Assembly: GCA_000004695.1 (NCBI GenBank)
Contig: CM000154.2
Coordinates: 1,440,001 to 1,504,000 of the forward strand
DNA length: 64,000 bases
Source: Dictyostelium discoideum
Taxonomy: Eukaryota
Direction: 5' to 3'
Under the pieces are notes generated by a model. That model had not been told where the DNA came from, ran no database searches, and saw only the letters and a list, made by a program, of their open reading frames with translations. Shown piece by piece: positions 20,823 to 22,575 of the stretch. The position numbers were made by a program, and so were the translations under genes. Every line of letters begins with the position of its first letter. Within the stretch, counting starts at the first letter, position 1.

Positions 20823-22575
20823 TTAAATTAAGTCATGTTCTTTTAATAAATCTTCAAGTGAGGAGGCATAATCTTGAACCCATTTTTTACATTGAGCATT
20901 GTATTCTGTAATATTATCACGATAAATTCCAGCTTTTACACTAATGTATATGTAAAAAAAAAAAATAAAAAAAAAATTAAGTTAAGATTTATTTATATTT
21001 TTTTTTCCAAAGAAAAAAAAAAAAAAAAAAATTAAATACTTACACATCTAATGGATCCATTGGATTTGGATTAGATAAAAGTGAATGAATTGAAAGTAAA
21101 ACTTTTTCAGTAGTGATAGCAGCAGACCAGTGGTCTTTTAAAATATCTAAACATATATTACCATCAGTATTGATATTACAATGATAGATACGATTTTCAA
21201 ATCTAACTTTTGGTGGTGCAAATGGATAGATATTTGGAAATTGAACAGAGAGTACGAAATGACCACCTTCATATGGTGTATCAACTACACCTTTCATTAT
21301 AACTTTCCAAACTGAAATATCATTTGGATTTGCATAAAGTGTGAATATTGATGATTTACCATTTTTATTTAATTCTTCAATTGATTTTTGAAAACTGATA
21401 TACTCTCTATAAATTCTTTTACTTGTACCACCAGCACCACTACCATTATTAATATTATTTGAAATTTCATCAAGTTTTTGTTGATCAATTTTTGAAACAC
21501 ATGTTATACCTTTAAGAGCACTATCAACTTTACGAGAGATTGTTTTCAATAAATCACCTTTTAATGATGAAAATTGTTGTTCATTTTCAATTGGGGAAGA
21601 GAATGGAGAGAAGGAATCTCTTTGAGTTGGTATTAATAAAGCTTCACGTTCAAATAGTTCAACACCTTCTTGGGTTGAATTTGCCATGAAACAACTACCA
21701 CCAGTTGCTTTAGTAAGAGTTGATAATGTACTATTATCATCTCTACCAATTGGAATTGCATCCAATATAATATTTAATGGTTTTAAATATTGATAAACAT
21801 TATAAGGATTAATATTTGAGGTATCTTGACCATCAGTTAATAAGAAAATTCTACAACAAACATCTGGTGCTAATTTCTCTTTTGGATTATTTCTATATTT
21901 TTCAATCTCATTTGCTGCATGATAAATTGCTTCATATAATCTTGTAGAACCTTGATTTGCAACAACTTCACCCAATTCTTGTGAAAATGAATCAAAATTT
22001 TTACTAATTTCAAATGCTGTATCAATTTTTTGACCAAATAATACTAAACCAGCAACTACTGGTACTTCAAATGAAACATATTTATCCAACATTGTTTGAA
22101 ATAATGCTTGTGAAACTTCACTTCTATTCATTTCAAGCAAACCTGGTTTTGTTGACCCATTATATGCCACAGCTGTCATTGAACATGAAACATCTAATAC
22201 AATCATATCAATTTGTTTAATTAAAAATTCATTACTATTTGACATTTCAATTTTTTTATATTCCAAATCAATAACATTTTTAGAATTATTAGTAGTAGTG
22301 GTAGTTGTTGTTGTAGTTGTTGTAGTTGTTGGTACTAATTTTGATTGATTAATTAAAATTAATTTTGAATTATCAGGAATTGATAAATCACCAATTGTAT
22401 CGGTTTCAAATAATTCACTATTTTCATATTGTAATTTAAAATTATTATTATTATCTTTGTTTTCCAAATTAACTGCTTTTAAAATTTGATTAATTAATTC
22501 TTGTATTGTTATTTCACTTTTAAATGGAAAATTAATTGTTTTATCAATTGATGGTACTGAAATTATTAAAGTCAT
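20823..22575 (-). CDS. UBL - von Willebrand A (intact MIDAS DxSxS) - ubiquitin-conjugating E2 (UBC) fusion protein, 2 exons
   Basis: Structure is complement(join(20823..20940,21044..22575)). The N-terminus MTLIISVPSIDKTINFPFKSEITIQELINQILKAV...KLILI has a beta-grasp/ubiquitin-like profile. The VWA domain shows IDMIVLDVSCSMTA...GSTRLYEAI...RIFLLTDGQDTS. The C-terminal UBC fold is SKRIYREYISFQKS...[96 protein letters not shown] intron follows, and exon 2 is VKAGIYRDNITEYNAQCKKWVQDYASSLEDLLKEHDLI*. The catalytic Cys (ICLDIL) is present. The usual HPN motif reads HCN. Confidence 0.8.

Follow-up and report, generated by a model that had tools for sequence, protein, structure and literature searches.

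A predicted tethered E2 of Dictyostelium discoideum combining ubiquitin-like, von Willebrand A and UBE2D/E-type ubiquitin-conjugating domains

We analysed a 64,000-nucleotide stretch of the Dictyostelium discoideum genome (the window; contig CM000154.2 of assembly GCA_000004695.1, positions 1,440,001 to 1,504,000) and focused on one gene on its minus strand, whose whole coding region occupies window positions 20823..22575. Its product of 549 amino acids (aa) carries an N-terminal ubiquitin-like (UBL) domain, a von Willebrand A (VWA) domain with a MIDAS (metal-ion-dependent adhesion site) and a C-terminal ubiquitin-conjugating (UBC, or E2) core. In our assessment this is probably a functional multi-domain E2 in which the MIDAS of the VWA domain acts as a targeting module, holding a UBE2D/E-type core on a substrate or scaffold; the function is predicted from sequence and structural comparison. 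The suggestion of an E2 tethered by a protein-binding module had been made in the initial annotation of this DNA and appears reasonable on the evidence below. In the usual view, E2s are generic carriers and it is the E3 ligases that select the targets; recognition of substrates by the E2 itself is known for only a few, such as UBE2O and BIRC6. If the reading is true, the VWA-E2s would represent a new way for substrates to be selected by the E2.

The gene consists of two exons, and every feature of it described here lies on the minus strand. Exon 1 (22575..21044) encodes the UBL, the VWA domain and most of the UBC domain in one uninterrupted open reading frame (ORF) of 511 aa, which runs from 22575 to 21040 and ends at the GTAAGT donor. 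The single intron of 103 nt (GTAAGT...TTAG, 20941..21043) interrupts the UBC domain, splitting the codon of V511 after its second position, and exon 2 with the stop codon occupies 20940..20823. The acceptor at 20941 is the only AG within 200 nt that restores the frame into the homologue-conserved VVKAGIYRDN, joining DPLDV to VKAGIYRDN. Because the UBL, the VWA domain and most of the UBC domain are encoded in exon 1, the VWA-UBC junction is independent of splicing. The 549-aa spliced product and the coordinates proposed in the initial annotation agree exactly with this model, and both of the peptides quoted in it are present. Its central claim, that the three domains belong to a single polypeptide, is borne out by the Pfam matches and by the continuous exon 1 ORF. 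It had also raised the possibility that the VWA and UBC parts belong to separate mRNAs. As far as sequence allows, they do not: exon 1 is a single ORF, and complete transcript-derived ORFs with VWA and UBC together were found in the relatives P0011 (Trinity assembly), which also has the UBL, and P0033 (Paramoeba, MMETSP), which is without it.

An orthologue from another D. discoideum assembly (P0001, GCA_054859355.1) is 96% identical to the window protein and was colinear with both exons by tblastn, with aa 1-529 aligning to 22575..21043 and aa 530-567 to 20939..20826. At the orthologous locus (L001) the intron lies at the same codon. The exact 549-aa product was absent from the protein collection searched, in which the nearest entry was the D. 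discoideum protein with 96% identity. The ratio of non-synonymous to synonymous substitution rates (dN/dS) against the orthologue was 0.18 overall, 0.05 for the VWA domain and 0.15 for the UBC domain, from small counts (27 synonymous and 19 non-synonymous differences), and indicates that the gene is under purifying selection.

Profile searches of the spliced product, a check that had been suggested with the initial annotation, gave scores above the cut-offs for the two larger domains: 145.3 bits for UQ_con (PF00179; cut-off 27, E=1.2e-42; aa 395-531, covering profile positions 2-139 of 140) and 34.4 bits for VWA_2 (cut-off 27; aa 124-250). The UBL exceeded its cut-off only when scanned alone. 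The UBC core (aa 391-536; 20865..21405, split by the intron) is also recognised by PDB and Foldseek matches. It is 40-45% identical to Ubc4 and UBE2D (UbcH5), its best PDB matches (E about 1e-37), and the top 60 PDB matches of the whole core were all of the Ubc4/UBE2D type (121-132 bits). When the active-site segment was searched alone, UBE2E1, UBE2E2 and UBE2E3 came out best (86 bits), just above Ubc4 and UBE2D. For structural comparison, a full-length AlphaFold2 model was made from the orthologue P0001, and a model of the VWA domain from the window's own VWA segment. Foldseek aligned the orthologue model to UbcH5 and UBE2E1 structures with TM-scores of 0.80-0.92 (E about 1e-14). By these comparisons the UBC core is judged to be of the UBE2D/E type.

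The catalytic residues of this core are retained. The catalytic cysteine C475 (21151..21153) is the equivalent of Cys85 of UbcH5b in alignments with UbcH5b, Ubc4 and UBE2E, and the HPN-motif position reads H465-C466-N467 in the DNA (CAT TGT AAT, 21175..21183). We counted residues over a 164-sequence family alignment, taking as the denominator at each site the sequences that cover it. The active-site His was present in 132/132, the Asn in 125/132 and the catalytic Cys in 128/131, and the middle residue of the HxN motif was Cys in 92 of 132 sequences and Pro in 19 of 132. The initial annotation had treated the change from HPN to HCN as an oddity. This did not hold up, for HCN is found not only in the majority of the protein's own family but also at the same place (RIYHCNIN) in human UBE2E1, UBE2E2 and UBE2E3, which are active E2s, and in UBE2E its distance of 9 residues from the catalytic Cys is the same as here. 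This branch of E2s thus has HCN as an ordinary state, which is no argument against catalysis; a false lead is removed, the motif being no sign of lost or unusual catalysis. For a critical cysteine of UBE2E3, Cys-136, a role as redox sensor has been proposed (PMC4294679); by our own count this is the HCN cysteine, lying 9 residues before the catalytic Cys145.

The window protein keeps the equivalents of UbcH5 H75, N77, C85, D87, N114, D117, F62 and A96. Of these residues, H, N and C85 hardly change within the family; D87, N114 and F62 are variable. At the positions that contact E3 ligases, F62 (F452) and A96 (A486) are kept, P95 is replaced by Ala485 and the K63 position is also Ala. Among the family sequences covering these RING/U-box contact sites, 67 have F at F62, 82 have P at P95 and 54 have A at A96. 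The UQ_con domain identifies the window protein as a true E2, and thioester formation on it is predicted. Beyond the core, a C-terminal tail (aa 537-549, SSLEDLLKEHDLI; 20823..20864 with the stop codon) is predicted to be helical, and the family at large conserves its pattern A-S-S-L-[ED]-[DE]-L...[YH]-N-L.

The VWA domain (aa 121-319; 21619..22215) has the Rossmann-like alpha/beta VWA fold and includes a last helix with L307-F308-E309-x-E311...R319. All five MIDAS residues are present in the window protein, each checked against the DNA: the DxSxS motif D128-V-S130-C-S132 (GAT GTT TCA TGT TCA, 22180..22194), the threonine T211 (21943..21945) and the aspartate D248 (21832..21834) within T247-D248-G249. 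Their retention in the family is close to complete, at 124/125 for D128, 123/125 for both S130 and S132, 162/163 for T211 and 161/162 for D248. The intact MIDAS and the retained catalytic Cys claimed in the initial annotation are thus confirmed, as residues read from the DNA and as sites conserved in the family. On the last VWA helix, the family signature LFExE...R is likewise shared, with E309 in 144/159, E311 in 149/159 and R319 in 157/158 sequences. The nearest structural neighbours of the VWA model were Ssl1/p44, INTS14, Rpn10 and Ku80, the Rea1 MIDAS being more distant. In sequence, similarity was negligible (Rpn10 E=0.19, INTS14 E=0.007), and no use of a MIDAS metal is known for the VWAs of Ssl1/p44, INTS14, Rpn10 and Ku80. 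An extracellular, adhesion-type VWA was also considered and rejected: no N-terminal signal-like or hydrophobic segment was seen by eye, the domain has a cytosolic enzyme as its fusion partner, and the folds closest to it are those of intracellular VWAs.

The N-terminal UBL (aa 1-78; 22342..22575), a beta-grasp domain, was recognised from a Rad60-SLD match, from PDB matches to UBLs and from predicted secondary structure. Its Pfam Rad60-SLD score was 21.0 bits in the full protein, below the cut-off of 23.8, and 25.9 bits when aa 1-78 were scanned alone. Among the family members scanned, the UBL was matched by Rad60-SLD in 13/15 and by the ubiquitin model in 12/15. A profile of the UBL region matched the UBLs of ubiquilin-1, ubiquilin-2 and Dsk2 in the PDB (best E=8.8e-4, ubiquilin-1), and in the orthologue model the domain has the order beta-beta-alpha-beta-beta with a predicted local distance difference test score (pLDDT) of about 67-88. 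No C-terminal Gly-Gly is present in the UBL, whose last residues, ...LILINQSKLVP, lead into the linker. The domain is therefore an integral part of the protein rather than a modifier that could be conjugated.

The model of P0001 as a whole (pLDDT 77.7, predicted TM-score 0.61) shows three folded parts and two disordered linkers. The linker after the UBL (aa 79-120; 22216..22341) is of low complexity, rich in Thr and Asn and predicted to be disordered; residues 80-119 of the orthologue model have a pLDDT of about 27-32, and both the length and the sequence of this linker vary among relatives. The region between the VWA and UBC domains (aa 320-390; 21406..21618) starts with a semi-conserved F..PFS..I and continues as a variable linker rich in Gly, Ser and Asn, with a pLDDT below 50 for model residues 378-398. 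P0001 has 15 extra residues in this VWA-UBC linker (an indel at window aa 376-379). The linker is judged to evolve via repeat expansion, the flanking domains being conserved.

To place the protein in a family, we searched with aa 1-378 and obtained 20 proteins, of which all the named ones are from dictyostelids (Dictyostelium, Tieghemostelium, Acytostelium, Heterostelium and Polysphondylium) and nearly all combine VWA_2 with UQ_con. There appear to be two paralogues per dictyostelid species. An exhaustive comparison of a VWA-region profile with 1.84 billion cluster representatives then gave 1,411 matches with E<=1e-3, of which 113 reached E<=1e-30. We examined the best 150 of these 1,411: in essentially all those of full length the VWA domain is followed by a UBC domain, and those without it are short fragments. 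The family alignment and profile searches reach E-values as low as 1e-229, so the domain matches are not due to chance. Beyond the dictyostelids, the named sources include Paramoeba atlantica, a choanoflagellate (Salpingoeca helianthica) and numerous ray-finned fishes, such as Coilia, Lepisosteus, Poecilia, Salvelinus, Dicentrarchus and Lates. The initial annotation had proposed to look for orthologues with the same fusion in other Amoebozoa; relatives that join VWA and UBC were found there (dictyostelids, Paramoeba), and the fusion is not confined to Amoebozoa. Around a constant VWA-UBC core the relatives add ubiquitin, U-box (before or after the core), WWE, PH and TPR domains, and in most short non-dictyostelid forms the UBL is replaced by a helical N-terminal domain without annotation. 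The window protein has every feature of this family, namely VWA followed by UBC, the LFExE...R signature and the A-S-S-L-[ED]-[DE]-L tail.

Database names of the relatives are automatic only ('UBC core domain-containing protein', 'E2 D/E' for several JGI entries, 'hypothetical protein'), and by its features the window gene is one more member of a family that already lies unnamed in the databases. No published description of a VWA-E2 fusion was found in our literature searches, whose coverage left out Burroughs et al. 2008 ('Anatomy of the E2 ligase fold'), and VWA is not mentioned in the genome-wide surveys of the ubiquitin system that we examined. As an E2 class, the VWA-UBC family appears to be undescribed. 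The initial annotation's view that the architecture is not a commonly described one is thus right as regards the literature, in which we found no paper on the class; the family itself is large and spread over many eukaryotes including fishes, much more widely than that annotation supposed.

Several further features were seen among the relatives. In most of the short non-dictyostelid relatives (P0026-P0065) the N-terminal 60-100 aa form a conserved helical domain with the pattern W..LFP.K...K..WL..L...EF....L..L....W..L.LPL.VK, for which no Pfam match was obtained in P0026 and P0059, the two that were scanned. Long relatives of 750-1,000 aa (P0079, P0084, P0088, P0104 and P0107, and the choanoflagellate-type P0080, P0082, P0094, P0095 and P0098) share large N-terminal regions; in the long form P0080, Pfam identified only VWA and UQ_con. 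The choanoflagellate-type group (P0080, P0082, P0094, P0095, P0098) has HPQ in place of HCN or HPN, and the loop before the catalytic Cys seems to be shorter. U-box-fused VWA-UBC proteins occur in fishes and some protists (P0103, which is Coilia grayii KAL2078640.1, P0059, P0123, P0146 and P0186-P0189), and with the U-box placed after the UBC or before the VWA domain they have E2 and E3 in one chain.

We propose that the C-terminal UBE2D/E-type core would be charged by the E1 on Cys475 and would transfer ubiquitin in the usual way. The MIDAS would hold a divalent cation whose coordination is completed by an acidic side chain of a partner protein, and binding of this partner would fix the E2 to a given substrate or scaffold. 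In that state the protein would act as a tethered E2, possibly as an E2/E3 hybrid without need for a separate ligase, with the two flexible linkers allowing the catalytic core to reach around the bound partner. The UBL may be an accessory that serves docking or regulation, with either ubiquitin receptors or the protein's own MIDAS as its counterpart. We infer the targeting role of the VWA domain from the intact core, the retention of the MIDAS at about 99%, the obligatory linkage of VWA and UBC, the flexible linkers and the recurrent addition of U-box and ubiquitin domains; that metal is bound, what kind of partner completes the site, that E1 charges the core, that no E3 is needed and what the UBL does are inferred as well. 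The added U-box, ubiquitin, WWE and TPR domains of the relatives fit a machine that combines substrate recognition with transfer. Such conservation of the MIDAS, in a family whose named members are from amoebae, choanoflagellates and fishes, implies that recognition through this site is a core part of the work of these enzymes. Dictyostelium is genetically tractable and apparently has only two paralogues, so the question is directly testable.

Two observations weigh against this reading. The closest structural neighbours of the VWA domain (Ssl1/p44, INTS14, Rpn10 and Ku80) are subunits of stable complexes, and the VWA domain could anchor the E2 in a fixed complex instead of selecting substrates. 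Moreover, the window protein has Ala at both the P95 and the K63 positions, where the family consensus is P and K, and its pairing with E3 ligases is uncertain. A bolder version of the tethered-E2 reading is speculative and, in our view, rather improbable: an undescribed, eukaryote-wide class of E2 in which ligand binding at the MIDAS is coupled to the E2 through LFExE...R, in the manner of an integrin I domain. Such enzymes would be ligand-gated and self-sufficient, the short forms, the window protein among them, needing no E3 and the fish and protist forms carrying their own U-box.

The MIDAS might instead be occupied from within, by the protein's own UBL, by its C-terminal tail (S-L-E-D-L) or by one of the acidic residues E309 and E311, either intramolecularly or head-to-tail between molecules, so that the E2 is switched on and off. 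There are precedents for such a switch in the last helix of integrin I domains and in Rea1/Midasin, whose MIDAS has the UBLs of Rsa4 and Ytm1 (NLE1) as ligands. In the Rea1 case MIDAS and UBL belong to different proteins and operate in ribosome assembly with an AAA+ motor, whereas the window protein has both in one chain with an E2. This co-occurrence speaks for self-regulation, as do the near-invariance of E309, E311 and R319, the conserved acidic pair in the C-terminal tail and an Asp (D59) that is invariant in dictyostelid UBLs. However, D59 is part of the sequence D-T-L-x-D-L, which corresponds in the alignment to a conserved part of the ubiquilin UBLs, and may be structural, and Rea1 is a more distant neighbour of the VWA model than Ssl1 or Rpn10. 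Most non-dictyostelid relatives, moreover, have the invariant MIDAS but lack the UBL, which can therefore not be its universal ligand, and we regard a self-regulated enzyme as unlikely.

The similarity of the UBL profile to the proteasome-shuttle UBLs of ubiquilin and Dsk2 would also suit a constitutive subunit of a larger complex, and the BRCA1-A complex, in which a VWA protein (MERIT40) stands beside E2-fold ubiquitin E2 variant (UEV) domains (PMC5199339), provides a precedent. Nevertheless, the position equivalent to Ile44 of ubiquitin is not conserved in the UBL by our own reading of the alignment, and sequence similarity to the Rpn10 and INTS14 VWAs is negligible, as given above. The near-complete retention of the MIDAS points to selection on metal-mediated ligand binding. 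This is not known as a feature of assembly domains of the Rpn10 or Ssl1 type, and a constitutive subunit seems quite unlikely to us. Finally, the replaced HPN proline and the absence of the exact product from the protein collection might suggest a catalytically dead, UEV-like E2, a decaying gene or a faulty gene model. A pseudo-E2 is ruled out by the catalytic Cys, His and Asn, which are retained and conserved, HCN being native to the active human UBE2E proteins, and a gene-model artefact by the location of the fusion within one uninterrupted ORF. With the low overall dN/dS and the same architecture in Tieghemostelium, Acytostelium, Heterostelium, Polysphondylium and far beyond, this group of explanations is extremely improbable.

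Comparison with known systems shows where the protein resembles them and where it departs. UBE2D (UbcH5/Ubc4) and UBE2E (UbcH6, UbcM2) have the same fold and the same catalytic residues as the window UBC core, and UBE2E is likewise an E2 with an N-terminal extension. Neither is known to have a VWA or UBL domain, whereas the window protein has 390 residues including folded domains before the core and a conserved 13-residue tail after it. The position of the backside Ser22 of UBE2D appears to be Tyr414 in the window protein, an uncertain assignment in a gapped alignment. The statement in the initial annotation that E2s are normally small stand-alone UBC folds was too strong: PMC12818219 describes extended E2s and the E2/E3 hybrids UBE2O and BIRC6, large E2s whose own non-catalytic domains recruit substrates with no separate E3 needed. 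Their functional logic, substrate recruitment within the polypeptide, is like that proposed here for the VWA-E2. No conserved regions of UBE2O and no BIR domain were found in the 549-aa protein, for which Pfam gave only UQ_con, VWA and UBL families at E<0.01; with unrelated accessory domains, it falls outside the UBE2O and BIRC6 families.

VWA domains are found elsewhere in the ubiquitin system. In the RGLG ligases of plants, a VWA domain for interaction is paired with a RING (PMC12647413). Like the window protein, RGLG, Rpn10, Ssl1/p44 and MERIT40 have an intracellular VWA as an interaction module of a ubiquitin-system enzyme or complex. None of these VWAs, however, is joined to an E2 catalytic domain: some have an E3 RING or a ubiquitin receptor as fusion partner, others have none.

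The full-length model also matched a protein of Hokovirus HKV1 (A0A1V0SEK3, 1,329 aa, 'E2 ubiquitin-conjugating enzyme', BFVD) over 611 alignment columns (E=1.3e-30), a match of fold only. It points to the same architecture in Klosneuvirinae and to a possible exchange of genes between host and virus. One fish relative was named by its source after the mimivirus 'bifunctional E2/E3 enzyme R795'. Compared with the window protein, the viral E2/E3-type proteins (Hokovirus and the mimivirus R795 type) are of about 1,300 aa and have additional regions. No relatives came up when viral contigs were scanned with two VWA motifs, and only the fold comparison picked out the Hokovirus protein.

Around the VWA-E2 gene the DNA is AT-rich and contains homopolymers and runs of Asn codons, as is typical of dictyostelid genomes. 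The gene is flanked on the same strand by two RhoGEF (DH) ORFs, 23358..26348 (-) and 15555..17288 (-), which share the motif FNKV(I/V)KEIIETEADY(I/L)D.ME; this suggests that they are paralogues of each other. The ORF at 15555..17288 (-) holds only the first half of a DH domain and so probably continues in another exon, for example 14380..15012. Nothing was found to support a functional link between the VWA-E2 gene and these RhoGEF neighbours, gene order being a weak guide to function in a eukaryotic genome. Further along, a DUF2465 (PF10239) gene at 27682..28731 (-) has a counterpart at positions 1..376 of L001, and the order DUF2465, large gene, VWA-E2 gene is common to the window and L001 (GCA_054859355.1), so the neighbourhood is syntenic. 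Just upstream of the start of the VWA-E2 gene lies a long (ATT)n tract (22915..23057), where a poly-Asn ORF on the minus strand (22815..23057) may be an extra exon of the neighbouring RhoGEF gene or a plain intergenic repeat.

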